In this document: positions 3,680 to 52,800 of the stretch, piece after piece
Numbering within the stretch: the stretch's first letter is position 1
Layout: every line of letters starts with the position of its first letter
From: Psammoneis japonica
Lineage: Eukaryota
DNA length: 64,000 nt
Direction of reading: 5' to 3'
NCBI GenBank assembly: GCA_008632985.1
Contig: QPGO01000123.1
Location: 124,001 to 188,000 of the forward strand
The notes under the pieces: generated by a model
The model's database searches: none
The model's input: the letters and a program-made list of their open reading frames with translations, nothing else
Told to the model about the DNA's origin: nothing
Program-made: the position numbers and the translations under genes

Positions 3680-4540
3680 ATGCGCCCAGCCAGGCTCTAC
3701 TCTCTGGCTGGCTCTCTCCCTCTCTCAACTGTGAAGGTAGAGGGGAAAATGCAACTCGGGGAGCAACCATGTGGAGTCTCCAGCAACACTTCTCCCACGG
3801 AGCGGGATCAAAACTGGTGCCGTGCTCACAGCACTCAGCTTCAAGTTGAGGAGCTCTTTTGCACCTTGCGCCATGGCATCATCAATCGCCAATTTATCTT
3901 GCTGATGCCACCCTGTTTCCAATGCATCATTGCCCATCCTTCATTTGTTTGGAAGCAAGAAAGGCATTCTGCACTCAGCATTGAAGCAGCAGCCACTCCA
4001 TCGCAATGCAAATCAAACATCGCAACAGGTGCAAGAGTGCTGTGCTGAAGGGCACATTGGCTCCAATGATTCTGCCTGCTCAGAAGTGCAACATGTGACA
4101 GCAATGGTGCTGACAATGCAGACATCCTGCACGTGAATTGTTGCAATGAAATTTCATTTGTGACATGTTTCCTGGTGGTGCACAGCATTTGATGTTGAGA
4201 GGCATTGCACCCCTCCCCAAGGAAAGGCCATCAGTCCTCCACATCAGAAACATTTCCAGAGCATTGGAAGCAATGCACACATGCTTTGCATCAGTGGAGA
4301 AATCAAGACCAGTTGGGTCACCAGATGCATCAGTGTCCCCCCCAAACACAAAAAAATGAAAAAGATGCAACAAACCACGAGGCTTTCAGCACACTCAAAA
4401 GGGCGGCCCCAAGCCCCATGAAGTTGATGGGTTTCTCACCCTGTGTCCTCCAAGCGGGGTGTGCTGGAAGTGTGGGTTGGCCAGCGCCGGTGTTGCTGGG
4501 CAAAGGTGTGACAGCACTTAACAGTTTCCTCCCGAACGTG
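3680..4540. other. TpA/CpG-depleted hypermutated relic
   Basis: TA and CG nearly absent; abrupt return to TA-rich DNA at ~4545. Confidence 0.75.
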
Positions 4541-5159
4541 TTTTTTGTATTCAACGGAAATAATAATCTAAAATCATATAAGAAAATTGTGCTTTTATAT
4601 ACGCATAAATCTCCTATTCAATTAGTCCGTCTCTTCAATGACTGTGTCTACGAGCTGTTACAGCATGTGCTTGGTGGTTGTCTCTTATTGCTCTACATGT
4701 GGAGTAGACATTGTTGCTTCGTCTCCGATGATTGATCACTTAGGATGCAGACACTAGCCTACTCGTTCATTCCCCTAAATGTTGGCGCGAACTGGCGACA
4801 GAGAGACAAACACACACGGAGCTCTACGTACGTAGAGGACCAATTTTAGCGATGACTTTGCCCCCATTTAACTTCTGTCAAAATGGGTACCTTCCATAGC
4901 CATGGGCTATTCCGTAGGATCAATTAGGTTCTAACTCTACTGTTCGACACTAATGGCATGACCCTGCATCTACATCTGATGTGTCTACCGCCCTAAACTA
5001 GGCACTGTCATTTCGTATTTAATTTGGACATGCTTCAATACGAAATTGTTCATCTAAGAAATATATCTTTGAATAATGACTACAAGCTTTGTATACGTAA
5101 AATATAAAAATTAAATACAAAATGTAGTCATTTGTAGTCACTCGGGAGGAAACGGAATG

Positions 5160-5700
5160 ATTGATTTTGGTTTTTTTTATCGGGCTCTCTTTGTCAGCTG
5201 CCCTCTTTGTTGTTGAATGGCCCAAACATCTCATTGCATCTGTTTCAGTGTGGCAAGCAACATTGGAATCTTGCTGGTCATGCAAGCCACCCCATCACAA
5301 ATGTCCACTCCTTCTGTTCCCTCATGACATGCCTTTTTTGCATTGAGCTGAGCTGCCCCAAACTCATCTGTCCAAGAAAAGCTCCCAACTGCACCACCCA
5401 ACAGGCCATCAAGGTCATCAGATTGCAACAAAAGCGGGAACTCTCTGTGAGAAAAAAGTGCTGTTTTTCTTGCACAGCAAGTTTGTGCAGCCCCCAGTGC
5501 TCAGCGCTTCTGTGTGACCGCTTCTGCATCTGGAGCATGTTGAGCTGCTGCTGGTCCATGCAACCGATCTGTCGTCGTGCGCAAAACTTTGGATCACTGG
5601 CATTTCCACTGCTGTGTGCAGCATGCCCAAGGAATTCACCAGCTTTTTCACCCAAATGTGTTGGCCTTGGAGGCAGCTGATGGTTTTTGAATTCTGACCT
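5160..5700. other. TpA/CpG-depleted hypermutated relic
   Basis: TA and CG nearly absent between a TA-rich 3' region and the CpG-rich YKT6 promoter. Confidence 0.7.
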
Positions 5701-8759: not shown

Positions 8760-10200
8760 TTTCTGTGCCATGCCGGTGTCTGTCAGTCCTCGACACTGGA
8801 GAAACACCAAGCTCGCAGCCAGCACCAATCACACCGCCTCTCTCCCCAATGGGCCATCCAAACACTTGGCTACAACATCGTTCATCATCTCTCCATGCAC
8901 ACCCATTGATTTGCTTCCTTTCTCCACACTTCTTGACTCATCTTCTTCCACTCCCTCGTCCTCCACCCAAACACCCCACATCCTGCCTGCACCGCCAGTT
9001 CTGCTCCCCCGCTGGCAAAAGATGCCATGTTTGTGCCCAAGAAGACTGGCTCAAGCAAGCGTGTCAGAAAGGCAGAGACCCACTTTCTCACAAGGGCTGC
9101 CAAACTGGGGCCAAGCATGGAGATGATGGCGTTCACATCCAACCCATTGATGCCAGTGCAAGCTTCCACTTTTGTCATGCTCTTGCCAGATTTGGGAGAG
9201 CTGCCCCGGCCAAAAGCTGATGTGCTGAACCATGTTGTCAGCAAAGCTTGCACTGTTGGCACATTCTGCTTGTCTGAAGCAGATGTGAACAAGATTGTGA
9301 AATGAGCAATCATGGAGATGTTCTGGAATCTTCAGGTGCCCAAAAGGTGGCGACACTTTTGCCAAGTGCAAGCAACCTGTCATGTGTGGTGAGGACCAGC
9401 AGTGTGCACATGTGCACCATTTCCAGAGTTTGCACTCCATTTGCCATGTTGATGCACTTGTGAAAGGGGTGGCAGATTTGCTGGTTGAACAACAAGGCAA
9501 GCAAAACAGCTGAGAAAACTTTTCAGCACATGATGTGTGCGCCATTCCAGCAAAGCAAAGTCACAATTCAGGGAGCACACCAGAGGGTGCAGCAGGAGCT
9601 GTGGGTGTGGAAGATTTGAACAAGCCTCCTCTCTGCTGCTGCCTCTCCCTCCTGGCCAGGGTCAAGCTCTTGCGCACTTGCAAGAAAGTGCTGACAATGT
9701 GGCATCAGATGTGGGTGCGGGAAATTGGACAAGATGATTTGTGAATTTCATGGCATGACCATCATGGAATGGGGGATGACAAGCCACTTCCTCCTTGGCA
9801 CTGGAGTCCATGAATGAGAAGATGGTGCTTGCTGAGCAAGGTGCGCTGAAGAAGCCTCGTTCTGCATTGAGCCCAAACTGCCTCTGCTTGGAAAATTGTC
9901 CACCATTTGACAGCTTGCAATTTGATCTGTCCATCGCTTGTGCCCTTTAGAATTGTGTTTGTGGGAAGATCTTGGACATGGTGCTGAGACAAAACATTCC
10001 ATGTTTCTGGTGGTGCAAAACGAGCTGTCAGCGTGTTGAAGTTTTATTTTTTGCGGACCCTCAACATGAAGTTTGTAACATGAAGAGCAGATGTGAAAAA
10101 AAGTGCACTTGCACCTTCCCCTGGTGGCCGAGGCCATTTGCACTGTGCAAGTCATGGGTCAAAAAGCCTCACTGATGCCATGTTTTCAAACTCAAAAAAG
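8760..10200. other. TpA/CpG-depleted hypermutated relic (probable decayed TE or gene copy)
   Basis: ~1.4 kb with essentially no TA and few CG; ORFs end in TGA. Confidence 0.8.
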
Positions 10201-16163: not shown

Positions 16164-17946
16164 TCAAGGAAGAAACACATCATCGTTCGGTTCATCGTCG
16201 AGCTTGACAATATGATTCCCACACCCATAGTTTGATTCGTCAGGACGTGAGGTAACTCCCATTAGATAGAGAAAATGCTTAAAAGACCAAGCCGGTCGAA
16301 ACGCCTCTCCATATGGCATTTTCCAAGACCACCAAAAGAGTTCCACATTGGCCGTTTCTGCTGCTTGTACTTGCGCCTCGTACGATGCTCGTAGTGTATC
16401 CAAATCATTGCAGGCTTGTCGAACGCGATGATGAGTAGAGGCGGAAAATTCGGCCGATGCGAGCCGTGCTCCCGGACCACATTCCTCGTCCACGGCACGT
16501 CGATAGACATTTGTCGCCCAAGAGGTGCATCGTCGTAACGTATCGGCTCTGGCGTCCACATCACCACAGGTATAGTTGCCCTGTATGCCGTCGGATGTAC
16601 CGGTACAAGCCGGTTCCCATGCATGATAGTGATGCATATCAAGAATGGCCCAAGTCTTGCGTTCTTGCGCCGTAGTGGCGGTTCTCCACCACGATGCAAT
16701 GATTCGTGTCGCTCCCGGGTGACGACCACCCAAATCCTCTCCATCACCCTTGGGCAAGACGGTTGGACGAAAAATAGACTCGTGAATGTTGACATGCAAC
16801 TCTTTTCCAAGGGAAGCAAGCGACGATGCACGAAAGGTGGCAACCGCGTCCTTGAGCCACAAGAGAACACGGAGATGGGGTCCATCCGGAATGTTTGTCA
16901 ATGCCGAGTCGATTGTATCCGTGTTGAGTTCGTCCAGGAAAGCCTTTGCAACATCGGGAGGCAGATCGGGAGAAACGCCTTGTCGTCATTGGGTCCAAAC
17001 AGTCCGGCCAAGTGCGCTGGTTCATTCATGGGACTCAGCCCCCTCAGCCCCTTGAAAGCCAGTGGATCGGTCTTTGCTAAAGATTCCACCCACTGAATAA
17101 AGTCTTTTAGGAGCTTGCGACCAATGTCATTTTCGGGATCTTTAGGCTCATCATGAATCCAGAAGCGCGGTGCCCGAGGCCATAAACCCGAAAAGGTGCC
17201 AATGCTGGTAGCTCCTGGATAGGTGTGTATATCCAACACGGCCGTAATATCGTGTGCGGCGCACTTTTGCAAAAAGTCCACAAGCAAACTTCGAGGAATC
17301 GCTGGCCACAAGACGTGTTTGTAAAACGGATCCTGACACGTAAATTTGGCAGTCAGCGTCGCCTCGTCCTCCTTCTCATTTAATCTTGTCGGATCCTCAT
17401 TGGTAAGACACCATGACATTGGAACTCGGACATGTCGAATCCCGAGTTTTTGCAACGCAGCTAAATCATCTGTTCCCATAAAGGAAACTCGATGTGCATG
17501 AAAGATCCGGATCGCCTTGGCGAGACTACCCGTTGCCGAAATCAGACTCGCCAACAAGTCTGTTTCCGAGTCCCAACGTGGTTGTCCAGGACTTCCTGTA
17601 TGAAGCGGTGGTAGACACCTTCCCTGCGTTGCGTTGTAGGGCGTTGCCACCTCGACTGCGCCATTTCCGACATAAAAATAATCTTCCAGTGATAACCACG
17701 AACCAAAATTGACGCCCGATGGCAAACGAAAATCATCATTATATACGACTTGGTACTAGTACTACCCACAGCACTTGCTTTCAAGGGGAAAAAGGAGTTT
17801 GCACCCACCGCGGCTGCAATCAAGACAGCCAACGACCCGATTACCAAAAGCTTCTTCTTTTGCAACGAACTCTCCGCCACTTGTTGTTCGCCTTGAAGAA
17901 TCTCTGGGGATGCATTCTTGTCGATTGCACCGTAACTTGCCTTCAT
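16164..17946 (-). CDS. Glycoside hydrolase family 5 (exo-1,3-beta-glucanase-like), membrane anchored; two apparent frameshifts
   Basis: GVNFGSWL, VRVP, LDIH, MNEP (acid/base), DMHHYH, AEFS (nucleophile), WWSWK; frames join by 1-nt shifts near 17742 and 16968. Confidence 0.88.
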
Positions 17947-18168
17947 TCTGCTAAAAGCATAGAAAGACGTTGCGGACGAATCGTTTAAAGATTGTTGCTT
18001 TATTTCTCGTGTTTATTGCAGTGGCTTTAGCTTCAGGCCTGTTTTCAGCTTTACTTGCGTTGCGTTGGGTTGGATCTTTGTCTTCGTCACAGATCTTTTC
18101 GCACGACGGTGGCGCGCGCAACTGTTTTTCAGCTTTGGAGCTTTGACGACGTCGGATCTTTGTCTTCG

Positions 18169-18341
18169 GTTCCCTAGAGTGCAACTCCAACTTGTCAAAG
18201 GATGGTGGTGGCTATAATGTCTCCACCCACACTAGGCGCTAAGGTGCCTATAGAATACACACTCTAGTGTCAAGGGCTAACCGAGTCTAGTAGTTCAGGG
18301 TTTAAACTCTTAAACCCCAAATTGCTGGACTCGAGCTGGTC
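18169..18341 (-). repeat. Split direct repeat B2 (terminal, retains TpA)
   Basis: Aligns with 18672-18846. Confidence 0.92.
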
Positions 18342-18388
18342 CTTGTGGTCGAGCGGCTCGGTCGACACCTCCGGGCGGGTGGGCAGGA

Positions 18389-18671
18389 AAAAAGAAAATT
18401 TGTGCACCATCTAGCGTGTCGGCTGGTTGGTGCTCCAAATTGTGAGCTGTTGTGAACCATTGGTGGCGAAGCCAATCTTCGTGTCTTTTTCCAAATCCTG
18501 GTGTTGAATCAACGTGGGGGGCCACTTGATTGTTTGCATTGGCAGCGTTCCCATTGAGGTCGAGTGCCCGAGATCACTTTTTAATCCAACACCTGGTCCG
18601 GATCTGTCAAAGAACATCCGTTCTCAATTCATCATTTGTCCGAGAACCCGTCAATTGGGGCAAGTGATGAG
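18389..18671 (-). repeat. Split direct repeat A2
   Basis: Aligns with 25993-26276. Confidence 0.92.
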
Positions 18672-18846
18672 GTTCCCCAGAGTGCAACTCCAACTCATCA
18701 AAGGATGGGGTGGTGGCCACAATGTCTCCACCCACACTGGGTGCCAAGGCGCCCACAGAACACACAAACTGGTGTCAAGGGCTAACCGAGTCTAGTGGTT
18801 CAGGGTTTAAACTCTCAAACCCCAAATTGCTAGACTCGAGCTGGTC
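18672..18846 (-). repeat. Split direct repeat B1 (directly abutting A2)
   Basis: Aligns with 18169-18341; differences are mainly TA->CA/TG. Confidence 0.92.
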
Positions 18847-19800
18847 ACATCCGCCGGCAAATCGCGCCGTCCCTTCATTTCCAACCCCAGGTCCAAGGTG
18901 AGAACACCACAGCCCCGCGGCAAGTCCGCGGAGAGGGCCCTGGAAGGTGGAATGACAGTCGCATCCTCAAAGGATCATCCAAAGAGCTCACCGGAGCAAA
19001 GCCATCCGAGCCAGAAGACAGTGTTAGCAAGCCCTGCTTGGGCCAATTCACGCTGAAGCGCCGGAGAGGTAGAGGCACAGCAACGGCGGTCCAGGTCGTG
19101 GTCGAGCCACACAACGTGCCGCTCGAGAAGGGCCACGGAGGGTTTGGTCTCGTTGCCCAAACAAGCACTCATGCCAGTGGCAAACAATTGAGTGCTGAGG
19201 TCATCGGTGGTCCTGCACGGAATGTGCAGGAGCCGATTTTTGTCCATGACAGCAGCGCCGGGGCGTGCGATCATCATGTCCCACGCGAAGAACTGCGAAG
19301 CTGCACTGTGCAATTGTCACACCGTCCCAAAGGAGACGGGCTCCCCTTTCTTCCCTGGGCAGAGGCTGTGCTGTTCCTGAGCCCATGGCAAGGTCACCTT
19401 GGGCCCATTGGGGGGCCGGGATGGCGGAGTCGTCTTCAAAATGGGGACTTGAAACATGGACTCGAATTTGCGTGGAGCATTGAGTTTTTGTTGGCACTGG
19501 GCGTGTGTCCCAGATGACCAGGCATGAGCCATGTCTAGAACCTGCATCCGTTCTAATGCCATGAGCCACCAATCTCTAGACAAAGTGAGTTCTCAATCCA
19601 AAACGCTCCGGACCGTGCACTTCTCGCAAATGAAATGTGCCCATTGCCGGATCTTGGAGGGCAGCGTGAGCCCACCGGCATGCTTCCGTTGTGTTGCAAA
19701 CGGTGGCCCAGCCTTGAAACACCCAGGGTGGCAGCACACCCCACACGGTGAACATTGTGTGCCGGAGCTGAACAAAAAGCCGGTCCCCGCAAAAGAACAC
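18847..19800 (-). pseudogene. Tyrosine recombinase remnant, C-terminally deleted
   Basis: FWLGWLCSGELFG (GWLRxGE first catalytic box with R->C) and LEMKG, then runs into B1; HxxR and Tyr boxes not found. Confidence 0.65.
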
Positions 19801-19812
19801 ATCACCAACGGG

Positions 19813-21972
19813 TCACGAGTGGAGGCACCGCAGTGGCAGCCCGTGCAGTGTGTCAGCCTGTTTCTCATGCCACCGAGCCATTCCTGCTGGGGCATGTGGC
19901 TCCACCCTGTGAGTTGGAACAGACGGCAAGGTGCAATGGTGAGGGCCAAGACACAGGACAACAATGGGGATTTGCAAGTGCGGTGGATGTGCGAGGGGCG
20001 TCCACGGGTCTTGGGGAAATGTCGTCGGCAGCTCTTGGATGCACCGCAACAGCCCATGCCAGAAGGCGGGAATGACCCGCGGCACAAAGAGCAGCGTGGA
20101 CGTGGTGAGAGGGCGCTCGGCACACGCCGTGAGGAGGAAAGTGAGCAGCTGTCGTGCAATTTTTGGAGGCAGAAACCACACAGTGAGCCGGTCGAACACA
20201 TGCCGGGCTGTCCATGCGGCACTCCATTCCTGAAAATGCCAAGAGTCGTGCCGGAGGGCACTGGCAAACTCGCTTGCCAAGGCAGGGTCAGGGATCAAGG
20301 GTTCAAAAATCACCGCATTGAGCTGGCTCTGGTCCTCAAGTTCATGTGGGACACTGGCCCACACCCCGCGGCTCAACCCATCCGTCATCTGCCTGATCAT
20401 GACAACCCCCGGCACATGCACCACTTGAAGGCTGCAGCCCAATTCAAGCTCAATGATCCAAATCTGCTCAATCAGGGTGTGCAGCCCCGGTGATGATGAT
20501 GAGCTGGATGCTGCCACCCAGCACGTCACAAGGTTGTCAGTGAAGTAGAAAATGGTCACGCCCTGGACGTCCCGAGATGGCAACGTACGCAGGTGTGTGA
20601 GGGCAAGGAGGAGCATCTTCAGCTCCTTCCAGTTGGATGAGAAATGGTGCACTGCAGGGCTCCACTGACTCATCCACATGCGCAGGGACTGGTCCCTGGG
20701 CCCCAGTGTCCCGCCAGCTCTGGTGCCGCTTCCGTCACCCCACGTTGGGAGCAGGGTTGCAGAGTGCACCGAACGGGCTGTCCGCCCCTGACCACCATGC
20801 AGGTGCGCTTCCCACCAGCTCAGATCTCGGAACATGTCTGGAGTCAGTCGGGCTCTCGTACAGTGCAGATCAGCACCAGTCCCTGACCCCGGGGGATGCA
20901 CCAACGAGTGCAGTCTCCGAAGGTGTGTGTGTCCTAGTCGGAGTGGAGTGGCATCCAACAGGGATTCCAAGGTCCCAGAGAGCACCAACAGGGCAAGTCA
21001 AGAATGCTCCCAAGTCGGTCCGAGAGGCAGGACGTGCTGTGTCACAGCCAACCCCTGCTCTCGTTTATCCCTCGGAATCACCAACGTGGGGATTCCTGTT
21101 GTGTCAAACAGGAATCCGCAGTGCTTCGCCACTTGGGATGGCGGGTGACATTTCAGTGGATGGCACAACAGGCCAACATCCACTGCCACATCAAAGAAGA
21201 AGCTACGAGCCTCGCAGGCGCTCTCGTGCGTCGGTCCATGAATCGCAAAGTTGTCCACAAAGACCCACATCTTGATTCCCGGGAGGCCGTCACATCGCAT
21301 CAGGACCAGACCATGTCCCAACTTCGGGTCGTAGGTCTCAGCGCATGACAGCTCGGTCCACCAACTGTTGACCCGGGGAGTGTCACCAAAGAGCCGGGAC
21401 GCGCTTTCTCTGAGCTTCCTCACAAAGGCGTTCCCATGCCGTCCACCCAGGGCGGGACAATTCCCGCCCCCCACAGGCAGACCTAGCCAATCCAGCAATT
21501 CTTGGCTCAACGGATGCATCAACCCAAGCCATGGTCTGTCGTTAGGGTGCGTGGTGAACTGATGGAAAAAGTTGGAAGCATCGACCACCGCTGTGTAGCC
21601 ACCCTGGTGCATTTCATCCAGAATGTGCGTAACCCGGGGAAGGAATGCTGGATCGTTCCCCACCACTTCATTTTGACCACCACTTCGCATGTCGGCAATC
21701 ACTCTCCATTCACCAGGTTGCCCTGGTTTGGGGACGCAGAATGAGGGTGTTGTCGCCAGAACTGCTGAAGGATCGGGCACAACCCCCAAGGCACCGATGT
21801 CGGTTAACTCATCCACGAATTGCGTGGTGATCTGTAGCTGCTCTTCATCCATTGGCGCATTCGGCATCATCTTGGATTCCGGCGGTTGTGGGAAGTTCAT
21901 CCGGATCCCCTCTTGCAGATCGTCCCAATGTTCGGGGGGGAATTCCCACCACAGCACCTGCAAGTGGTGCAA
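19813..21972 (-). pseudogene. DIRS-type reverse transcriptase and RNase H
   Basis: VPKPGQPGEWRVIADM, VVDASNFFHQF, GLPVG, WVFVDNF, KHCGFLFDT; RNase H WGDGSG, SSNWKEL, FTDNLV, HVPG, TDGLSRG. Confidence 0.9.
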
Positions 21973-22193
21973 GTCGGTGCCCCCACATCGTCACAGTTGT
22001 TTCTGTGTCTCTCCAGGGCAACCACCCCTTGACTGATCATGTCTTCGCGTCTCTCACGCGGGTGCCGTTCCACCGCACAGAGTGGGTTCTCCAGTCGCTG
22101 CAGGTGCCAAACCCCGCCCTCAGAGAGATCCGGCGGCGTCCATTTGAATTCACCATGACCCGCATCATCCGACCCATTCTCCGATTCCTGGGG

Positions 22194-23330
22194 TCAAGCT
22201 GAGATGGGCTCGTTAGGTTTTGCAAGCCGGAGGGTGGGCCATCGTTCCGATTCCGGTTCCAACGTGAAGCTCCTTCCCACATGCTCCCAGTGGAACACGC
22301 TTGTGGTCGATCCAGCATCCATGCGGGCCTCAGGGATGTGCCAGTCCTTGGGAACTCCCAGTCCTCGCCCAAGCTCCTCCTGAGTGAGATGTCGAACCCG
22401 CTTGGCAGCACGAATCCAGGCCCCCGCCTTTGCAGGCATGGGCTCTGTTGCCGCTTCATGGATCCGGGCCCCGCGTGGGATCTCACCTTTCACACGTCGG
22501 ACGAGGCCCTTGGGCATGAGTGGGTTGCTCACAGCCCGGGGTCAGGTGCCTCTGTGCAGCGCATCCCAGGTCCAGCGAGTCGCACACGGCTTGGCTGCTC
22601 GTGCGACTGGGAGCCGGCTCTGGTCGATGGCGCCACCCACTTCGGCCACCGCTGCTCGCCGGAACCAAGATTCATAACCCAGCCTTGCCCAGCATGTGCG
22701 GGCGGCTTTTCCCGTGGGTCCGTTTTCCCAGGTGATTGCATGTGCTTGCCAGCTCTCTAAGACTACCTTCGGGCAAGAGTCTGGGGTGGTGGTGTCCACT
22801 GGTTCTTCCCAACGTTCAGCACAAGGCAGTTTCCTTGGTGTGTGGATAAACCCCCACTCCACCACCAGCAAGTCCACTGGATTCTGCGCCAAGAGGCGCG
22901 TCTTGACCCTGGGGCCGGTGACTGTCACCACCGCATCTGACTTGGGTCCAACGGGATTGCCTTGCCGGCGGACACACAGCTTCTGCTCCAGCCTTGGCCA
23001 CGCGACCTTCATGGTCTCAGCACCACACTCGAAGGTGCCGCACGACTTGATCCACGCAAGTGCTTCCCTGGGTGGAGGCACACTCTGCATCTCCATTCCC
23101 TCTACAGTCGGGTCCTCAACATCCTGGACACTCTCAGTGTGGACACCTCGAGGTCTGGTTCCATCGTCGCTTGTTTCCAGGGCTGACGGACAGTGGATCC
23201 AGTCGCGCCCGGCTCCCAGCAATCCCTCCTCCAGTGCCATCGTGTGGGATCTGTCCACCGCGATTACAAGAGTCCGCACACCAATCGTAAGCTTGCCCAG
23301 TGTGCAGGAGGTTAAGCAGGGAGTGAGCAA
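22194..23330 (-). pseudogene. Degenerate C5 cytosine-methyltransferase-like domain upstream of RT
   Basis: Ordered motif-like blocks FECGAETM (I), VDLLVVEWG (IV), PKVVLESW (VI), LGYES..GGAIDQSR (VIII), RHLTQEELGRGLGVPKDW (IX), TSVFHWEHVG (X); in-frame TGA at 22542. Confidence 0.55.
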
Positions 23331-25948
23331 TTGGGGTGCCTAATGTGATGTACACTGTGCGACGCGAGGAGGAGCGGTGCGGCTTGACAATTGGTTCTTG
23401 GGCCGGATGATCCAGGCCCAGTGTTCGCTCCGACTCCGGAGCCCATTCCATGTTCAGCTTGGAGGTGCGCATCTCGGAGATGAAGGTCTCAAGATCACCG
23501 TCAGGGTCCTCCTCAAGGTGCTTGGTGAGCTCGGCACACGCGGCCTTGACCTTGTCGAGGGTGCAGTTGGTCTTTGTCACCCCCCTCAGAAGCTTTCTGG
23601 CTTGTGATGCCGGGAGATCCTTGGCGGGGCAGTTGGCGCGTCCCTCACCGTGAAGATTGGTTCGGTGACACACGGCGCACCTGCGGGAGGAGCCCGTGGC
23701 CGTGCTGTTGTGGGATCCAGATTGGTTGACCACCGCACAGAGATTCTGCATCTGATCAAACAGGTCGTCACAGATTTCCTCATGGCGGAAGCGGTGTTGA
23801 TGAAACGCTTCACGGAGACAAACATGGCACAACAGGATGTGGGACCGGAAATTGGGTGCAAGCATTCAAGTGAGCCTGAGTCTTTTGGCATGGTGTTTGA
23901 CCATGCTCTCGGCCCACCCGTCCTTGCACTCCACCTCCCCCTCTTCAGAGTGTAGGGATTCCTGGGCCAGAGACAACAGAGCCAGATGGCATTCGCATGT
24001 CTTCTGAAGGACTCGAGGCAGAAGCCCGTGCCGCAAGCAGTCCTCAATGAACCGGGGCGAGCATCGTCGCTCGTAAAGAAAGGCCTGGAACCGGTCATTC
24101 TGAACCGGCCAGAGCTTCTCCCATGCTTTGGAGACTTCCTTCATGATCCGCATGAGGTCTGACCGGTTCTTGATCAATCCCAGAGTGTTTGAACGCTTGG
24201 TCTGCCAGGCACTGTCATGTCCGGTCCGGCTCCGCTCGAGCGCACCCAGATGTTTCAAGAGAGCTGCCACAAGCTCCTCCTTGCTGGGTGTGTTTTCAAA
24301 GAAATCGGCACCACACACACCTGGTGACGCCGTCACATCCACACTCTGATTCAGAAACTCCGCCCAATCTCTCGCATCCAGCCCCGGTGGGCACAGCAGC
24401 TGTTCCACTGCCGTCGCATTCAAAACCGCTTCGCCAAAGATCTTGGTGGCATCTCCAATCAATGGGTTGTTGCCCCAATGTTCCAAATTGAGCCGGCGTG
24501 TCTCCGCAATGCCGTCCTCATCCGTGAGAATGGGAGCGGCGGCCGAGGGTGCGGCAGGCGTGCCCACCGCCGAGCAGGGGGGAGGGCCAGTTGCTCTCAC
24601 CCCTGAAACTCCCGCGGATGGTGCAGGTGCAATCGGTCTGGCCATGGGAGGCACTGGTGACGGAACTCGGGGCACCAGGGGAGGCACTTCCTCCCGCCAC
24701 CGTGTAGCCTCGTCAAGAGTGGCGAAGGTTCGCACATGTCGGAACCCCCGGCTCAAAGCCAGGGCCACATTCGCATCAGAGGTGCAGACATGCTGCTCAT
24801 GTGAACCACGAACGAAGCCATGCCACCGTTCCCCCGGCATTGTGGGTTGACGACGATGCCACTCTTCTGCTTCTCGCTGAGTGGGGAATGTGGCGCGCAA
24901 GATGGCACCCACTCCAAGCCAGCATTCCAAGTCCTCACGAGCATTGCAAATGCGCCGAGTCTCGTCTGGTTCACTCAACCCATGCCAAAGGGGTTCGGGC
25001 CCCGGCAGCGACGGTCGAGATGCCATTGGAGGAGGTGATGGATTGGCAGCAACAGGAGTGGTGCCTGGCCCTGGGAAAGGGATCCTGGGGCCAGCAGCCC
25101 CCTGACCAGAGAGGTCATTCCGAGCTTCAACTGGACGTGTCCCAGTTGAAGTCGAGTGTCCCAGTTGAAGTCGAAACTGTGACAGGGTCCGCTGCCTGTT
25201 GTGACAGATTGTCTGTCTGCGGAGTGACCGGTGACAGCAGGCACTCAGTCGTGATCGGCGGGTCGTGCAATTCAGTCCCGCCGAAGGTCACCTGCCTCTG
25301 TTCTCGGTGGTCTTCTCCCCCTCGGATCTCATTGAGCTCCTGCTGAAGATTCCGGTCCAGATCCGCCATTGCTTGACGGAGCGGAGTGGCGCCGGTGAAT
25401 GACTCATCGTTGGTGGTTGCAACTGATTCTTCGTCCGGCTCTTGATCGTCCAGGAGAGCCTCAGCCACGCGTGACATCTCGTCGTTTTCGGCCGAGACCC
25501 GCGCGTCTCGCTCTTCGCAGGTCAATCCCATCCGGAGCCGGTCCAGTCGGCCGTCAACCACGTCCCTGTGCCGTCCGCTGGCATTGGGGAACCTCTCATA
25601 GAATCGAGGAGGGGCCCGGTGGGCTGTCTCTTGTGACTTCTTATGGTGCCCACGATGGGTACACCCGTCGCGGGTTGCCCCGCATGCGCAGTGAATCGTC
25701 TGCCCACACTCCTTGCGGGTCATGCAGACCCGGCACAGGTTGTCTGGAGTGAGGTCGACCAGGTCAGAGGGGGCCACCAGATCATCTTGGAGAGTCACAC
25801 TTCCCACTGACGAGGTCTCGGAGAGTTGTTTGTCCTTGACAGTGCCGTCATCCGCGTCGTCCGTGTCCAATGTGACGGTTTCAGGCCCAGAGACTAAGAC
25901 ACCGGTCGTGGTGGAAGAGTCCGGTGGACTGCCGTCGATGCGTGTCAT
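23134..25948 (-). pseudogene. gag-like ORF1 with N-terminal Cys cluster, two RNase H1 N-terminal (viroplasmin)-like repeats and a C-terminal zinc knuckle
   Basis: ORFs 25127-25948, 23866-25026 and 23134-23865; WHG..IC/VC..TF.T..EA..W twice; CAVCHRTNLH..CP. Confidence 0.65.
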
Positions 25949-25992
25949 GGCGTTGTAGCCGTCAGGTAGACAGCAGTCCAGTTCCCCCCTGC

Positions 25993-26276
25993 AAAAAGAA
26001 AATTTTTTGCACTGTCTAGCGTGTCAGCTCGTTGGTGCTCCAAATTGTGAGCTGTTGTGAACTGTTGGCGGCGAAGCCAATCTTCGTGTCTTTTTCCAAA
26101 TCCTGGTGTTGAAAATCAACGTGGGGCCACTTGATTGTTCGCATTAGCAGCGTTCCCATTGAGGTCGAGTGCCCGAGATCACTTTTTAATCCAACACCTA
26201 GTCCGGATCTGTCGAAGAACATCCGTTCTCAATTCGTCGTTTGTCCGAGAACCTGTCAATTAGGGCAAGTGATGAG
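25993..26276 (-). repeat. Split direct repeat A1 (5' terminus of element)
   Basis: Aligns with 18389-18671 and retains more TA/CG. Confidence 0.92.
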
Positions 26277-26439
26277 TCACAGGATCTTTTCGCACGGTGG
26301 CGCGCGAAATGACTGCGATGATCGCGCGCACGCGCGTATCGACGATTGCGGAAAACGCCACCACAAAAAAAAAAAACCGTACTGTAGCGAGCGACACGAT
26401 GGGAACAGAAACAGAAGGAGCGACTAATACCATTAGCGG

Positions 26440-27365
26440 AAGCCGAATCGACGAGGAGAAGAGCACTGCGGGGGGTGCCTTGATGACACGTGGTTTCAAT
26501 CGAGACGAAAAAAATGGCAAAGACGAGGAGATTTCTTGCCACACGGACAAAACGACCGTTCGTGCCGGGAACGTGACGGTACGCATGAAATTCTCAAATC
26601 TCTGCTGTCCTACGTTTGTTTTGCAAAGCGTTTCGAAACTAGAAATTTGAAGCACGTTTCGAAATTTTTCAAATGATGATTGTCTTGTTGCCGCTCTTCT
26701 CACCTTTCCTCGCGTTCTGAACGAACCTCATGCTGCAGAGTTCTAGACGACGCATGTCAACTCGTCGCGAAATCGCAGGTAAGGTCACTTTGCCGTGTAC
26801 TTGAACGTAGAGCACCTCCCCCTTTTCGTTTGGACTTTTTCATTCACTCCCTATTCTATTCCTTGCTGTTTTTTCGAAATGCAGCGGATGCTCGGACTGT
26901 CGTCGAGCTCACACTTCGTCCCATCCGCAACACCGACGATCGCAGCATCGTTCTACTCGCTCTCCCAAAGTTCTTTGACATGAAGCAGAGGCGTGCTTTT
27001 GTTGGGATTTATGAGATATTGGCAAACGGAAAGACTGTACCTGAAGAGCTTGGGCGATTCCCCATTGAGCGAAGGGATGAATTGATCCAAGCATTTCGTG
27101 ACACTGTCCATTCTATCAATGCTAGCTTTTGGCCGTAGCATATAGGCGTGCCAAACGTTTCCGCCACGACATTTGCTGCTGTATCGAGATTCATCGTCAT
27201 AGAACATGCCAATTGATCCATGTATATTGTTGTCATACTTGGCAATGCTAGAGGTAATTGGAGAAGTGCTGCAACTTGCCAAGGTGTAGCCACACAAAAT
27301 TTGGTTTGTAATCATTGGGTCCAATTCATCTGCCCGTGAGTAACTAGGTCGGTACAGGATCAAAA
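26440..27365. repeat. Segmental duplication copy 1 (copy 2 is 33490-33583 plus 39419-40300, split by the Copia element)
   Basis: Shared blocks gacgaggagaagagcactg..gccttgatgac, gggaacgtgacggtacgcatgaaattctcaaatctct and gaattgatccaagcatttcgtga. Confidence 0.88.
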
Positions 27366-29768
27366 TGTTATTAGTTTTCTCTACCGTCTTTACTGGATGA
27401 TATCATGGAATTCATCGAATCCAAATTAGCGTGAGGCATCGTCTGACTGGCAAGGTTGTTGTTGATTCAGAGAAAGAAGAAAGACACATCCATGACCAAA
27501 ATTTTTTGGGTGCCAAACGTGTCTTGTACTTGGAGACGGCTGACAACACTGTCCTGACTTGATCAAAATCAGAAGCGGTCAGCAAAGCGAGATTAACCTG
27601 TGTCCCTTTATCTTCCATGGCATTCTTGCTCACCACCAGAGAACAAACACAAGCTTCATGGCCTCCTTCTGCAGCAAATGTCAAAGCCGTCACGCCACAA
27701 AATGTGGAGTGATTTGGATTTGCACCACATTTGAGAAGAGTGTCCAAACATGAAAGCCATCCAGAATCAGATGCAGTCATTGACAGCTCTTGTTTTGACC
27801 TGCCCAGGTGACAAACACAGAGCAGAACAAAGTTGAGATCTCTCTTCCTCGTTGGATGTCACATTCCCCAGAGTCCCCAGACTGCATGCCAGCACACTCT
27901 CTTACATCATTTCGCTGATGCCTCACAAATCTCTGACATCCAGGTGAATGACCAAATTGAATTTCATCCACCATGGATCTAAATTTTGTTTGGCCCAACA
28001 CCAGCAAATAAATCTGCACAATGCAGATTTGCCACTCCCAGTGGGGCCATCAAGCAATGCAGACTCAGCTGAAGTCATCTTTTAAAAATTGGTCAACACA
28101 ACGCCAAGCTGCTGGCCCATGTCCTTGTTCTTGTTGCCTGTGGTGTGTGATGCCACCACTTGCTTGTTCACACAATTCAATGCAATCACCTGTTTGGTCC
28201 ATTCTGCTGCCAGCACCTTTGACCATGAACAAATCAACCGCACAGGTGAGGAACGTCTGTCACAGCTTCTCTGGCAACTCATTTTGCATGCTTGACATTG
28301 ATCAGTGATGTGACCCATGATCATTGTCTTGACACCCAAGATGTCCTCAAGTGGCTGCAATGCCACAATGAACTGCTCCAAGTTTTGTGCAAGCCAAGCA
28401 CACCACCTGATGAAGTGGAGAGATTTTGTTCAAGAAGCTGTTGCACTTTGCCCTGGCCCTCCTCCAAATTTTGCAGAGCCTCCTTCATTTCTCTTTGGCC
28501 TGTTTTGAGATCTTCTGGAGGCCTTCTGCCAGCTTTGACAACTTTTTGTCCAGTTCAGTGATTCATCCCTCCAAACCTGAGAAATCAAAAACCATTTTCA
28601 TTGTGTTTGCAGCGATCCTTTCAAGAAGCATCCTGTCACTTGTTGCACACAGTTTCTCCAGTTCCTTTGCATGGCTGTCAGCTCACTTTCCACAACTGTC
28701 TCACATTCTTGAGCACAGGGGGGCCTCATTGCTTGCACTGAGTTCTGTCCACATCCTTGAATGCAGTCAGCACAATTGGCATCTGAGGCTGCAAAAAGTC
28801 TGATCATCTTGGAGTCACCACCATCGGAGCTGTTCTGATCACCTTGAATGGCATCAACACATTTGAGCTTTTCAACTTCATGTGCTTGATGAGCCCAACT
28901 TCATCAAGATGGGGCATGATCCCACTCAGTCACTTGATCTGGCCTGCAATCTTTTTGACAATTGAAGTGTCCTGGCTGATCACTTGAAGTGCTGGCATGA
29001 GTGCCGCAAAGGCAACTCCAACAAATGGCGCACAGCTGAGCACCCCAGCCACTTCTTTCAATGTTTTGTTCATGGAAGTGACTGTCTCCCCATCAATTGC
29101 AAATGTTGTCACCAAGAAGCTGTCGTCAAAGCCTTTCAGCATACAACCAGTCAACCCAAGTTCATTGAGTGCAGTTGAAAGCTGGCTGAACACTTCATGT
29201 TTGTCACCTGCATTTTGTCTCACTTGTTCAGCACTGCTTTTTGCCTCTCTCACCTTGGTGGACAATTTGGCAAAGTCACAAATTGCCAATGTGCAACCAT
29301 CGATTGTTGTTGAGTTGGCTGCCACGGTGTTTGGTTTGTTTTCTCTTTCTGTCTGTTGCCCATTCTCTTGTAGAAAGACAACACCTTCAAAGCTGGGAAC
29401 ACTTTCAATTTTGCTTTTCCCTGGCACAGTGCGAACAGTTTCCAGCATGCAAGAGTTCCTGCCACCGACGGGTGTCGACTCAACATGCAACTCCGATCCA
29501 AGGGCGACACGAATGGAGGCGCGCAAGAGAATGCACTTGCTGCCACTGCTCAAAGCTTGTTTCACCTTTGTCATTTTTTCATCATCTGACAAAGCAAGAC
29601 ACTTGCTGTCGTCAGCCACAAACACATGCTCTTTGGGAAAACTGGGGCAGCTCGAGTTGTCAACACGACTTCGAAGATCCTCAGAACTTTAATTTCCTTC
29701 TTCAGATCATCGATCAACTCTTCCCAGTTGGCCCCAAACAGTTTTGCTTTCACTCCATGAGGAGCCAT
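26953..29768 (-). pseudogene. Hypermutated host-type gene: helical N-terminal region, ankyrin repeats, C-terminal domain
   Basis: LLKCGANPN..GVTALTFAAEGGHEACV ankyrin consensus (27412-27780); long coding-like frames at 28930-29768; TA-free from ~27450 to 29900. Confidence 0.6.
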
Positions 29769-30227
29769 GGGAATGATGTTGAAGCTGCTTTCACAGCACG
29801 CACCCCACGTCAAACAGATTCTGTCTCGCCTGTCCAAGATCCAAGCGATCGATCTTCAATCTCAACTCATCAAAAATCACATTAAGCACAAGAAGTGGAA
29901 GCATTTAATGCTGGCTAGCAGCAGCCATCATGCAGCATCTATTTTAGGTATGAACACCCCCTCACTCGAGCGAGCGAGGAGAATGAATTCAGAATCATCT
30001 CAGTGGCAGTGGCGATCTGTCTGTACGATGGTTTCTACGTACGCATGTTTTGTACTGTCCTCCGTCCGTGCCACCTCCAGCCCGATTCCCGTACCAATTA
30101 CAGACCTCCCAAGCCGGGAGTGCCCGATTCAAGACACGATTCAGAAATTCAGACGAGTAGCGACGAGCGACGACACGACACGACACACGACACAACACAC
30201 AACACATAAAATAAAATTGTACATACA

Positions 30228-32279: not shown

Positions 32280-33578
32280 ATGAGAAGTTGGTTGCTGCTT
32301 TCAGGCAATGGATTCAAGATGCAGAAGTGACCAGGGTGCACCAAGCCATGTTTCTTCCCAACAAGCACTGAAACACCTTTGAACCAGCCAAACCCTCTGG
32401 TGTCAGTTGCGCCCTTTGCCCCTGGTCACCACAATCCTTGGCTCCACCCACAGATTTCTTCAAAAAGAATTTTCCACTTGATCCCTTTGAGCTGGTGGTG
32501 CCATGGCCCTTTTGTGTGCTCATGTCAATGCTGACATCATTCACCTCATGGGGTGTTGCTCTCAGTGAAATGCTCCATTGCCTTCGTGTCCAAGCTGGTC
32601 ATGTCATGCAAAATTGTTGTCCCAAATGCTCTCCAGGGGCAGGCTTGAAAGTGCAAGGCTGGGAGAATTTTAAAACAAATTGGGGAGTCTCCCAGACAAA
32701 AAAGGCCGGGGCCCAGGTTTGGGGGAGTGCTGCAGCACTGGCCTCTCTGCTCTCCTCCCAAACAACAAAAAATGCCCTGCAAGACTCTTTCCTCTCTCAA
32801 TGTGCTCTCCCCAGTGTCACTGGCCCACCTTTTGTCTTCCACAAAGTTGTCCAGGAGCTGGTGCTTGGCTGGCTCCTGGTGGGTGGTCTGGAGCTTGAGC
32901 TCTGAAAATGGACCTCGTCTGTGCCAACAGGTGTTTGGAGCTGGTGCCTCCTGCGTGTGCTGTTTGAAATGACAGCACCAGCCACCACAGAATGGGGAAG
33001 ATGATGCAAGGGCTGTTGATCAGCTCAAGTTTGTTCCCACCATGGACAGAGGTCTCAAGCCTGTCTGCACCAGAGACCACTCAACACAACCAAGGCTTGC
33101 GGCCATTCTTTGTCATTGTTGCAACAAGAACAACGTTGTGAACAGAAGAAGAGTTTTCTTGAAGGATCCTCCCGCTTGCCCCAGGAGCTGGCAAGAATGC
33201 TCAGCTGGCTCCCAGTGAGCAGTCTGGAGCTCAAGCTCTGCAACTGCCACCAACTGTTTGGAGCTGGAGTCAGCTGTGCTGTTCCTTGAAGTGGCGGTGG
33301 CCGCAATCTCTCCTCCCACGCTGTTGGGGCACATCAGTGCTGCCGTAGTTGTGGATTGAGTGCACGGACTGTTGCGATGATTTTGCCACATTGCGTGCAT
33401 GCATGCATGCCGGCAGGGCCCCACATCAACCCAACCATCAACCCCATGACATGACAAGCACAACAACAGAAGCAGTGCCTGCCACTGGCAGAAGCAGCAG
33501 AATTGACGAGGAGAAGAGCACTGTGGGAGGCGCCTTGATGACGCATGGTTTCAATCATGACGAAAATGACAACGATGA
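32280..33578. other. TpA/CpG-depleted relic adjoining the Copia 3' LTR
   Basis: TA nearly absent; includes the mutated left part of the segmental duplication. Confidence 0.75.
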
Positions 33579-33583
33579 GCTTT

Positions 33584-33985
33584 TGTGGGCACACGGCAGT
33601 TTACGCCGCAGAGATGGAAATGGTGGCAACAGACAACTTAGGAGGTGTGAATTGACCAGTCGCTAAATTGTGAGAACAAAAACTGCTCCACTCGACAACC
33701 AACAAGAATTTGTAAAGAACGAGAAGTGACCCACATTTGCGCTGAACTCAATGCAGATGAACACAGTGAAAAGACTTGGCAGGAATGAGAAGTTCTTGAT
33801 TGCACAAAAGAAAAGAAGAAGCGGGGCTCAATTCTTGATTTGAACCCAAGACCTCCGATCTCATTCGTTTCTCGAGCTGTGATTGGGTGAGTCGTTGATG
33901 GTGGTTGATGGCGGTTTCTGAGCGGTCATTGTCACACGCAGGACTTGATGGCACACTGATGCTTGAACATGTGTGTGTTCTCACA
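33584..33985 (-). repeat. 3' LTR (402 bp, heavily TpA-mutated)
   Basis: Aligns end to end with 39009-39413. Confidence 0.95.
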
Positions 33986-33992
33986 CTCCCTC
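33986..33992 (-). other. Polypurine tract GAGGGAG
   Basis: Immediately precedes the 3' LTR on the minus strand. Confidence 0.75.
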
Positions 33993-34012
33993 ACACCGAA
34001 ATGTCCAAGTTG

Positions 34013-38919: not shown

Positions 38920-38992
38920 GATGTCGTCGTTTCGGCGTCCACGACGTTGGGCTCTGGTTTCTGCAACAATTTTGAACTAAGTCAGGTCTCTA

Positions 38993-39008
38993 TAGCGCAG
39001 AGGAAGCA
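38993..39008 (-). other. Putative primer-binding site complementary to the D-arm of initiator tRNA-Met
   Basis: Plus strand reads TAGCGCAGAGGAAGCA directly beside the 5' LTR, resembling the conserved eukaryotic tRNA-iMet TRGCGCAGCGGAAGCG. Confidence 0.6.
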
Positions 39009-39413
39009 TGTGGGTATACGGTGGTTTATGCCGTAGAGATAGAAATGGCAACAACAGACAACTTCTTGGGAGGTGCGAACTGACCAGTCGCCAAATTGTG
39101 AGAACAAAAACTGCTCTGCTCGACAACCAACAAGAATTTGTAAAGATCGAGAAGTGACCCATGTTTGTACCAAACTCAATACAGATGAACGCAGTGAAAA
39201 GACTTAGCAGGAACGAGAAGTTCTTGATTGCATAAAAGAAAAGAAGAAGCGGGGCTCAATTCTTGATTTGAACCCAAGACCTCCGATCTCATTCGTTTCT
39301 CGAGCTGTGATTGGGTGAGTCGTTGATGGTGGTTGATGGCGGTTTCTGAGCGGTCATTGTCACACGTAGGACTTGATGGTATACTGATACATGAATATAT
39401 GTATATTCTCACA
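39009..39413 (-). repeat. 5' LTR (405 bp, TpA largely retained)
   Basis: Aligns with 33584-33985. Confidence 0.95.
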
Positions 39414-39418
39414 GCTTT

Positions 39419-45721: not shown

Positions 45722-45804
45722 TCAATTGAAATGTTGTCTGACCAAGGGTGTTTTGATTTAGATGGTGAAGAGCAACACCCTTGGTCAGACAACATTTCAA
45801 TTGA
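45722..45804. repeat. Perfect inverted repeat, 31-bp arms, 21-nt loop
   Basis: tcaattgaaatgttgtctgaccaagggtgtt / aacacccttggtcagacaacatttcaattga. Confidence 0.92.
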
Positions 45805-48288: not shown

Positions 48289-48429
48289 GGTGATCTCACG
48301 TTTCTCAAAAGCAGAATTTGTTTCATGTGCACCCCTATGAGAATGCGAAGCGCTGAAGTTCAGTCGTGATTTGAAGTCGCGCTTGGTCGCGCAAACTCAA
48401 AACAAGCAAAGCGCGCGAAGCTAAATTCA

Positions 48430-52079: not shown

Positions 52080-52800
<721 letters not shown>

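Follow-up and report, generated by a model that had tools for sequence, protein, structure and literature searches.

The stretch at 18169-18846 of a 64,000-nt window of Psammoneis japonica DNA (contig QPGO01000123.1 of assembly GCA_008632985.1, positions 124,001-188,000, forward strand; all coordinates are relative to this window) forms the 3′ end of a Ngaro-like retroelement, which repeat finding and alignment delimited to 18169-26276 on the minus strand (8,108 bp). On the plus strand the stretch reads B2, a 47-bp spacer, A2 and B1, corresponding to B1-A2-spacer-B2 in the orientation of the element. B2 and B1 are the outer and inner copies of one split repeat, A1 and A2 those of the other, A1 being located at the opposite, 5′ end of the element (Table 1). 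The junction of B1 and A2 at 18671 represents the joined element termini and fixes the ends of the element. Comparison of such duplicated sequences indicates that transposable elements of this region have been stripped of the dinucleotide TpA (TA), probably by a host process acting after insertion, and that the repeat copies at three of the four examinable element edges were largely spared.

Over 174 aligned positions, B2 (18168-18341) and B1 (18671-18846) differ at 18, of which 16 are transitions. TA in the outer copy is matched by CA or TG in the inner copy at 11 sites, the reverse is found once (TG at 18326 against TA at 18831), one difference is a double, i.e. one copy has TG where the other has CA, and two are of the CpG type. 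A1 (25993-26276) and A2 (18389-18671) show 16 mismatches over 281 aligned positions, among them 14 transitions. Here, outer TA corresponds to inner TG at three sites with no reverse case, two doubles occur, and seven differences are of the CpG type, five of them lost from the inner and two from the outer copy. All sequence pairs that a preliminary description of the stretch had listed for the two comparisons were reproduced by alignment. Not listed there were an additional site (ctctagtg against actggtg), the reverse case and any of the double or CpG-type differences. Together, TA was lost from the inner copy at 14 sites and from the outer copy at one (binomial p = 0.00098), and only 4 of 455 aligned bases differ outside the TA and CpG types. 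The extreme termini of the element (18175 and 26261) retain TA where the internal junction copies do not. CpG sites of these repeats are hypermutable as well: 9 of 21 differ between copies, compared with about 0.9% of other sites, six being lost from inner and three from outer copies.

The loss of TA extends far beyond this element. Counts in 200-bp bins across the window, from which the boundaries were drawn roughly, revealed at least 11 sharply bounded islands almost devoid of TA. The islands comprise 31,060 bp with 151 TA (0.49 per 100 bp), and the remaining 32,940 bp contain 1,227 (3.72 per 100 bp), a contrast far beyond chance. Within islands the TpA/ApT ratio is 0.02-0.17 and the (CpA+TpG)/(ApC+GpT) ratio 1.4-2.4. 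Three of them are identified mobile elements, namely the Ngaro-like element, a Ty1/copia element with long terminal repeats (LTRs) and a DDE-type DNA transposon. Open reading frames (ORFs) with host-type Pfam domains lie outside the islands. Thus, the signature does recur in an unrelated retroelement class, as the preliminary description had it, in the form of the Ty1/copia element at 33584-39413. Confinement to elements with an RNA intermediate, which would have spoken against that description, was not what we found, given that a DDE_Tnp_4 DNA transposon is also affected. Because this transposon carries the signature, an RNA intermediate is unnecessary. DDE_Tnp_4 was detected in 6 of 10 scanned full-length relatives of its giant frame, one of the six falling just under the cut-off.

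The copia LTR pair adds a time axis. LTRs of such an element are made identical by reverse transcription and are therefore equal at integration. At present, 37 of 402 positions differ between them. TA was lost at 15 sites from the left and at two from the right LTR (p = 0.0023); the remaining differences are five TG/CA doubles, four CpG-type changes, one CG/TA double and four others, the latter being the only aligned bases among 402 that differ outside the TA and CpG types. As the copia LTRs diverged after integration, the changes originated in the integrated DNA itself. Over the three repeat pairs scored (B2/B1, A1/A2 and the copia LTRs), 71 mismatches were counted, of which 32 are single exchanges between TA and CA or TG, 16 belong to eight TG/CA doubles, two to the CG/TA double, 13 are of the CpG type and eight are other changes. 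At least 75% of TA sites differ between repeat copies, compared with approximately 0.9-1% of other sites.

On the plus strand, 17 of the products are CA and 15 are TG, so both strands were targeted. Strand-coherent tracts were sought in the copia left LTR by a runs test done by hand, which gave six runs where 8.5 were expected and was not significant. On the edited strand the base following the edited A was G at 15, T at 10, C at six and A at one of the 32 sites. The TA sites that survive in islands are enriched in YTAR contexts (TTAA 2.7-fold, CTAA/TTAG 2.4-fold, CTAG 1.9-fold) and nearly lack ATAT (0.08-fold) and ATAC/GTAT (0.14-fold). In the interior of the Ngaro-like element this shift is significant against the background of its relatives (chi-square p = 0.002): ATAT and ATAC/GTAT together account for none of the 38 surviving TA in the Ngaro-like and none of the 25 in the copia element, compared with 21% in the relatives.

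Paired copies are by themselves symmetric and cannot reveal which copy has changed. The direction was read from outgroups. Among 13 conserved Tyr columns in the pol of the Ngaro-like element, defined as Tyr in at least 70% of 60 aligned homologues (of 267 found), three are kept, seven have become His, two Cys and one Trp, and other classes of conserved residues are kept to 56-100%. Tyr to His or Cys thus makes up nine of the ten changes. In the DDE ORF, compared with ten relatives, all 11 conserved Tyr columns have changed, six to Cys and five to His, while Gly is kept in 24 of 26, Trp in seven of seven and Glu in eight of eight conserved columns. Base composition was compared with relatives from metagenomes, 67 loci in all, of which 12 full-length ones were analysed for composition and ORFs. 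In these 12, the observed/expected ratio (o/e) of TpA is 0.62-0.88, CpA and TpG are near 1 and CpG is 0.66-1.0. The interior of the window element shows 0.05-0.19 for TpA, 1.2-1.6 for CpA and TpG and 0.55-0.83 for CpG, with 38 TA in 7,146 bp as compared with an average of 3.55 per 100 bp in the relatives. Its GC content of 58-61% is partly native, since that of the relatives is 45-60%. Because of the outgroup Tyr columns and the TpA ratios of the relatives, the direction of change is, as judged from sequence comparison, loss of TA yielding CA or TG, with the inner copies as the mutated ones, in line with what had been proposed.

Near-identical copies met different fates. B1 has lost 11 TA and B2 one; the copia left LTR has lost about 83% of its scorable TA sites and the right LTR about 30-40%. 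The fate of a copy is therefore set by its position, not by its sequence, and because identical sequences fare differently by position, the process is probably a regional one. Homology or small-RNA matching alone cannot explain such contrasts between equal copies, whereas a regional limit can. Four edges could be examined (Ngaro B2, Ngaro A1, copia left LTR and copia right LTR). All scorable TA are kept up to 142 bp from the edge in B2, with hits from 157 bp onwards, up to 131 bp in A1, with candidate hits at 213 and 263 bp, and up to 233 bp in the right LTR, with hits from 242 bp onwards. When these three outer copies are pooled, 1 of 27 TA is hit within 150 bp of the edge, this sole hit being an ambiguous double, as opposed to 10 of 20 deeper inside. 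The dependence on distance from the edge is significant with doubles included (Mann-Whitney p = 0.0035) and with single hits only (p = 0.039). A fade over the outermost ~200-300 bp, as the preliminary description had put it, is thus borne out at three of the four edges, in the form of complete sparing over 150-240 bp followed by partial mutation; it does not hold at the edge of the copia left LTR. Beyond this LTR, the flanking non-element DNA termed R2-left also carries the signature. R2-left and R2-right are the two parts of one copy of a ~1.1-kb repeat R. This repeat is present twice: one copy, R1 (26302-27437), adjoins the Ngaro-like element, and the other (33362-33583 and 39414-40363) was split by the copia insertion. 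R2-right shows no bias relative to R1 (17 shared TA, with six against three changed, and 34 shared CpG, with seven against ten changed).

Table 1. Features of the affected elements and of the mutated flank (window coordinates)
Feature	Coordinates	Strand	Remarks
Ngaro-like: B2, outer 3′-terminal split repeat	18168-18341	-	14 TA in 174 bp, largely spared
Ngaro-like: A2-B2 spacer, 47 bp	18342-18388	-	No counterpart beside A1
Ngaro-like: A2, inner copy of A	18389-18671	-	Compared with A1: 3 TA lost (to TG), 5 CpG lost
Ngaro-like: B1, inner copy of B	18671-18846	-	Compared with B2: 11 TA lost (on the + strand 8 to CA, 3 to TG)
Ngaro-like: degenerate ORF3, tyrosine recombinase	18810-19988	-	tblastn with ORF3 of six relatives, 35-46% identity
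Ngaro-like: pol (N-terminal domain, reverse transcriptase, presumed RNase H)	19798-23120	-	Frameshift near 21981; in-frame TGA at 20998-21000
Ngaro-like: ORF1 (gag-like) remnants	23461-25870	-	tblastn with ORF1 of relatives, 25-38% identity
Ngaro-like: A1, outer 5′-terminal split repeat	25993-26276	-	5 TA retained, 2 in A2
R2-left, flanking non-element DNA with signature	33362-33583		Compared with paralogue R1 (26302-26527): 3 of 3 TA and 13 CpG lost
Ty1/copia LTR retroelement	33584-39413	-	RVT_2 and gag_pre-integrase matches; 5-bp target duplication GCTTT
copia 3′ (left) LTR	33584-33985	-	402 bp, heavily mutated
copia 5′ (right) LTR	39009-39413	-	405 bp, outermost ~240 bp untouched
DNA transposon, giant ORF	57199-61794	+	1,532 codons; TpA o/e 0.18; relatives with C-terminal DDE_Tnp_4

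According to the definition given in PMC4157794, elements of the Ngaro/PAT type encode a reverse transcriptase followed by a tyrosine recombinase, carry split direct repeats (A1...B1-A2-B2) downstream and generate no target duplication. The window element was assigned to this type, of the order DIRS, because it combines a reverse transcriptase, a downstream tyrosine recombinase, split direct repeats beyond the recombinase and the absence of a target duplication; a decision between Ngaro and PAT hinges on the methyltransferase domain. It differs from the type in its length of 8.1 kb, a long ORF1 (~770-810 aa in relatives), an additional pol N-terminus of ~370 aa that is a property of its family, and the 47-bp spacer between A2 and B2. 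In the 12 full-length relatives, pol and ORF3 measure ~1,100 and ~520-570 aa, respectively, and one relative (L043) has the same split-repeat arrangement. At the DNA level none of the 67 metagenome relatives is close to the window element, the best reaching 66-82% over short stretches.

A Pfam search with the element's own ORFs returned only a weak RVT_1 match (20998-21990 on the minus strand, E 5.8e-6, 26.6 bits), which is under the 29.6-bit cut-off. Of the 267 pol homologues (best identity 64%), most of those listed carry PF00078, and they align end to end with the pol of the window, one frameshift and one in-frame TGA apart, the latter falling on a conserved Arg column. A profile of 50 pol relatives matches the reverse transcriptases of Ty3, foamy virus and MMLV (Moloney murine leukaemia virus) in the PDB. 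A GDGSG-type stretch conserved in the alignment is no more than suggestive of the presumed RNase H of pol, and the C-terminal ~300 aa of pol carry no domain assignment. The ORF3 of the window copy is broken, and Pfam scans of ORF1 and ORF3 of relatives yielded nothing meaningful; likewise, a sequence-profile search of the PDB with ORF3 produced chance matches only. Its assignment comes from structure prediction. In an AlphaFold model of the ORF3 of a relative (mean predicted local distance difference test score, pLDDT, 56.6), residues 310-500 mostly score 70-95, and Foldseek returned 17 matches at E<=0.001, all those listed being Cre or its variant Tre. XerH, XerD, an integrase, Flp and topoisomerase IB followed at lower rank. 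For the N-terminal domain of pol (~370 aa, 21981-23120 on the minus strand), a faint match to the cytosine-5 DNA methyltransferase M.HhaI was noticed (PDB profile, positions 104-215, E 0.027-2). No methyltransferase match at E<=1 was obtained by Pfam in six relatives. The domain could be a methyltransferase-like domain borne by the retroelement.

The target also exists without an insertion, 81 bp upstream (junction 18087/18088), and the element was inserted between the same two halves at 18168/26277. Comparison with this paralogous target revealed no target-site duplication. The target site (18031-18168 and 26277-26310) is situated in an 81-bp tandem duplication. X1 is the only sequencing run that contains the stretch, and is available in contig form. 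Two further runs derive from the same sample, and no RNA run with the stretch was listed. One X1 contig joins 18167 to 26276 with one ambiguous base, the shorter side of 20 bases providing weak support. An X1 contig is devoid of both the element and one 117-bp unit, which suggests that the insertion is heterozygous or polymorphic. Further copies of the element, ~9-10% diverged, are present in X1 at similar depth.

TpA-directed hypermutation has a precedent in the alga Bigelowiella natans. In its mutation-accumulation lines two integrated viral regions are reported to mutate approximately 1000-fold faster; every change falls on a TpA, and nearly all are A>G or T>C (Mettrop et al., bioRxiv 2026, 10.64898/2026.01.13.699255). 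TpA-poor clusters elsewhere in that genome are enriched in reverse-transcriptase and 'DDE superfamily endonuclease' Pfam families, and an ADAT2-like deaminase was proposed to be responsible (10.64898/2026.01.13.699255). Both organisms share the A:T>G:C change at TpA, resulting in TpG or CpA depending on the strand, as well as TpA-poor, CpA/TpG-rich clusters in mobile or foreign DNA, and reverse-transcriptase- and DDE-type elements are affected in the window, too (10.64898/2026.01.13.699255). They differ in the background, TpA representing 3.7% of dinucleotides in the window and 6.0% in B. natans, and in the extent of depletion, which is near saturation here (o/e 0.01-0.2) and 0.45 for the region derived from a nucleocytoplasmic large DNA virus (NCLDV) there (10.64898/2026.01.13.699255). 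Beyond the identified elements, a 220-bp flank (R2-left) is hit in the window, and the edge of one island falls within an ankyrin ORF (27415-27858). Element edges, paired repeats, flanking-base preference and CpG decay are absent from the abstract, Results and Discussion of the preprint. It was the only earlier description of TpA loss in transposons that a literature search returned, and its supplements may hold data on context or boundaries. The phenomenon itself is thus already known, once, from 2026 and from one alga, and the window is a new instance with new properties.

Three better known processes invite comparison. In repeat-induced point mutation (RIP) of ascomycetes, CpA is turned into TpA, TpA rises and the DNA becomes AT-rich, the trigger being sequence duplication. 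Shared with the present case is a mutational defence that fills mobile DNA with a single type of transition, tied to a single dinucleotide context, affects both strands and can leak into neighbouring DNA. In the window, however, the mirror image is seen: TpA is turned into CpA or TpG and vanishes, GC rises, and equally repeated copies fare differently. The RIP signature, an excess of TpA with a deficit of CpA and TpG, is the opposite of what the islands show. In animals, ADAR and APOBEC3 act on RNA or single-stranded cDNA before integration and mark one strand. Clustered deaminase-type transitions in mobile or viral DNA are a shared feature, and ADAR prefers a 5′ U and a 3′ G; here, it is integrated DNA that was modified, on either strand, and a DNA transposon as well as flanking DNA are among the targets. 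Finally, the islands also lose CpG to TpG and CpA in the manner of methylation-dependent deamination, CpG o/e being 0.09-0.3 where islands are strongest. Such decay by itself leaves TpA in place, though, and younger elements lose TA faster and more fully than CpG, as in the Ngaro-like element (CpG o/e 0.55-0.83, TpA 0.05-0.19).

We consider it likely that a host process specific for TpA acted on integrated double-stranded DNA after insertion, struck at least three classes of elements and was delimited by position. According to this reading, the 8.1-kb Ngaro-like element, the copia LTR element and the DDE element were each hit after insertion. TpA was converted to TpG, or to CpA when the opposite strand was hit, and some 85% or more of the interior TA was removed; a repeat copy within ~150-240 bp of an element edge was left almost untouched, and at one edge the mutated domain ran on into flanking DNA. 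As proposed for B. natans, the chemistry may be the deamination of DNA adenine to inosine by a deaminase with a preference for TpA, related to TadA/ADAT2 or ADAR (10.64898/2026.01.13.699255). The enzyme might be drawn to a stretch of silenced chromatin with methylated CpG, a domain that would nucleate within the element and end about one nucleosome short of its edge. Such a chromatin domain is a plausible guide, though short of a probable one, and a limit set by the transcription unit is possible but more doubtful. Of the host chromatin-domain process put forward in the preliminary description, the regional, position-delimited host process is supported, while chromatin is not singled out, as a transcription-unit limit fits the same four edges.

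In the transcription-unit model, the same TpA hypermutation would be bounded by transcription of the element and not by chromatin. Deamination would perhaps strike strands that become single during transcription, or the enzyme would be brought in by nascent RNA, and it is conceivable, if rather unlikely, that the untranscribed 5′ promoter part and the region past the polyadenylation site escape in this way while read-through damages the downstream flank. In support of this model, both retroelements have minus-strand orientation, the copia LTR that escaped is the 5′ one with an untouched outer portion of plausible U3 length (~240 bp), A1 as the 5′ repeat of the Ngaro-like element keeps TA in its outer 131 bp and has its only candidate hits at 213 and 263 bp, and the unspared edge is a 3′ LTR with the mutated R2-left downstream of it. 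Exposure of the non-template strand, however, predicts a bias, and the products are balanced (17:15, and 6:5 for Cys:His). Moreover, differing terminator efficiencies must be assumed to reconcile the spared 3′ repeat B2 of the Ngaro-like element with the unspared copia 3′ LTR, and the CpG loss at 32400-33362 is much stronger than that of copia, so that this stretch has the appearance of a separate island of greater age and not of read-through. In addition, transcriptional silence is reported for the larger of the hypermutable viral regions in B. natans (10.64898/2026.01.13.699255). We regard a limit by the transcription unit as a possibility of the weaker sort. A RIP-like trigger, in which copies pair and are mutated over the paired length with recognition fading near the ends of homology, would be favoured by the diverged Ngaro copies seen in X1, and the RIP analogy is drawn in the B. 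natans preprint itself (10.64898/2026.01.13.699255). It is improbable in view of the equal repetition of B2 and B1, and of the right and left LTRs, with fates of 14:1 and 15:2, respectively. Likewise, repeat R occurs twice in the window and mutation is limited to the 220 bp enclosed by two islands, the inverted repeats at 41002-43053 have normal TpA, and the hypermutable NCLDV region of B. natans is reported to be single-copy (10.64898/2026.01.13.699255).

The remaining alternatives dispute the process itself. Editing before integration, be it A-to-I editing of element RNA by an ADAR-type enzyme, deamination of cDNA or errors of the reverse transcriptase, might be suspected from the TpA (UpA) context and the preference for G or T on the 3′ side, which resembles ADAR. 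Its chances are close to nil: the copia LTRs differ at 17 single TA sites and five doubles, change is equal on both strands, a DNA transposon and flanking DNA outside an element are mutated, and the extreme termini keep TA that the internal junction copies have lost. Because of the LTR divergence after integration and the products on both strands, reverse-transcriptase error and RNA or cDNA editing are excluded as the source. This agrees with the preliminary description, which had argued against a reverse-transcription error of one element, and the signature in the flank at 33362-33583 adds to it. A sequencing or assembly artefact, for instance systematic miscalls at a modified base in silenced DNA, could be entertained when the only run with the stretch is perhaps the assembly's own source. 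It is very improbable, as X1 contigs are identical to the interior of the Ngaro-like element over pieces of 504-583 bp at ~26x depth, the elements bear further lesions, namely a frameshift, a stop and the decay of CpG, and the B. natans signature was called from short reads (10.64898/2026.01.13.699255). Finally, the direction might be reversed, the inner copies being original and the terminal ones having gained TA by RIP-like C-to-T changes at CpA or TpG. The symmetry of paired data and the unusually high TA density of B2 (o/e 1.21) would accommodate this view. Highly improbable as it is, it conflicts with the outgroup-polarised change of Tyr to His or Cys in two elements and with the gap in TpA o/e between relatives (0.62-0.88) and the Ngaro interior (0.05-0.19), it requires two opposite processes within one element, and experiments with B. 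natans saw loss of TA (10.64898/2026.01.13.699255).

Several points weigh against a post-insertion process that spares element edges. The eight TG/CA doubles are ambiguous, since they could originate from CpG instead of TpA. There are four edges in all and one of them is unspared: in the copia left (3′) LTR the mutations reach the very last base, and TA depletion continues beyond it to ~32400. The distance thresholds (Fisher) were set after the data had been seen. The split repeats are devoid of an outgroup of their own, and their direction follows by parsimony from the polarised interior; among 40 of the 753 variant places in X1, none falls in the Ngaro block 18169-18846 and could polarise it through other copies. 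In this context, B2 is conspicuous for a TA density of 8.0 per 100 bp (o/e 1.21), above all 16 non-coding termini of relatives (1.9-7.4 per 100 bp, o/e 0.33-1.07). DIRS-type replication does not ensure that A1 equals A2 and B1 equals B2 at insertion, and a parent copy that had been mutated beforehand could have passed on some of the differences between the Ngaro repeats. A clean clock is provided by the copia LTR pair alone. Finally, X1 may be the source of the assembly itself, hence its support for the base calls is non-independent.

Provided that the post-insertion process is real, it may tentatively be viewed as a DNA adenine-deaminase defence, a 'reverse RIP', which would exist in marine protists well beyond chlorarachniophytes and be aimed by a chromatin or transcription-unit mark with limits at approximately nucleosome resolution. 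With the same reserve, the last ~150 bp including promoter-proximal sequences and recombination termini would escape, and host DNA between two insertions would be destroyed. The flank preference would be palindromic, RTAY being wiped out first and YTAR persisting, a pattern that we put forward with caution and that hints at recognition of double-stranded DNA. Accelerated decay of CpG might accompany the loss of TpA in the same domains, an equally tentative suggestion.

What is new in the window is the occurrence of the signature in an apparently different and poorly sampled organism than B. natans, near saturation and in three transposon classes. The duplicated termini act as internal controls, since one and the same sequence is mutated or spared by location. 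Such paired repeats separate targeting by position (chromatin or transcription unit) from targeting by sequence (homology or small-RNA complementarity), and the question of how the enzyme is aimed becomes testable genome-wide through LTR pairs. The process also has practical consequences. Loss of TpA deletes TAA and TAG stop codons and gives rise to long spurious ORFs, 39 of which with at least 100 aa overlap the 10.5-kb span 17000-27500. Furthermore, LTR divergence is inflated about ten-fold, and insertion dating based on LTRs would be badly wrong in such genomes.

A number of further observations were made in the window. The DDE frame at 57199-61794 is interrupted by a single stop and is related from end to end to proteins of 1,500-1,750 aa that terminate in DDE_Tnp_4. 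Its N-terminal ~1,300 aa match no known family. More TA is retained in the first ~800 bp of this frame (3-5 per 200 bp) than deeper inside. Several ORFs of the window extend over 450-630 aa without introns, and the best matches of two host ORFs in the protein collection are distant, at 30% and 41% identity; like the lower background of TpA, both features indirectly suggest an organism other than B. natans. A 975-aa ORF had appeared as XPG/MKT1-like by a weak protein Atlas lead (0.79), which was superseded by homologue and Pfam analysis.

Depletion of both TpA and CpG characterizes the islands at 8800-10200, 27600-29800, 32400-33360, 43700-46400, 48200-50000, 52200-52800 and 62000-64000 (TpA o/e 0.01-0.1, CpG o/e 0.09-0.3, CpA and TpG near 1.9). 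No ORF of at least 130 aa in these islands gave a Pfam match. A transition-tolerant alignment of the island 32300-33400 with the DNA to the left of the Ngaro-like element scored no better than shuffled sequences. The ankyrin-repeat ORF (27415-27858, minus strand) straddles the left edge of the island 27600-29800; it belongs to a foreign element, or else it is a host gene that is being eroded by spreading. Between 3760 and 5700, a TA-rich segment of ~660 bp (4530-5190, ~7 TA per 100 bp) is enclosed by two TA-free, CpG-poor blocks, with switches within a few tens of bases. This segment is either a younger insertion or a protected part of the island. The first 100 bp of repeat R are extremely rich in CpG (18 CpG per 100 bp at 26300-26400). 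At 41002-43053, inverted repeats of ~500 bp that are 72-90% complementary surround ~1 kb of DNA; with a TpA o/e of 0.6 and normal CpG they are unaffected by hypermutation.

Among the metagenome relatives, locus L058 (1-1307, Ngaro-like pol) displays the same signature as the window element, with o/e values of 0.06 for TpA, 1.50 for CpA, 1.55 for TpG and 0.44 for CpG. It is not close to the window element at the DNA level, and its composition hints that the process may occur in nature beyond this genome. Locus L049 is intermediate (TpA o/e 0.34), and the other 65 loci range from 0.50 to 0.97.

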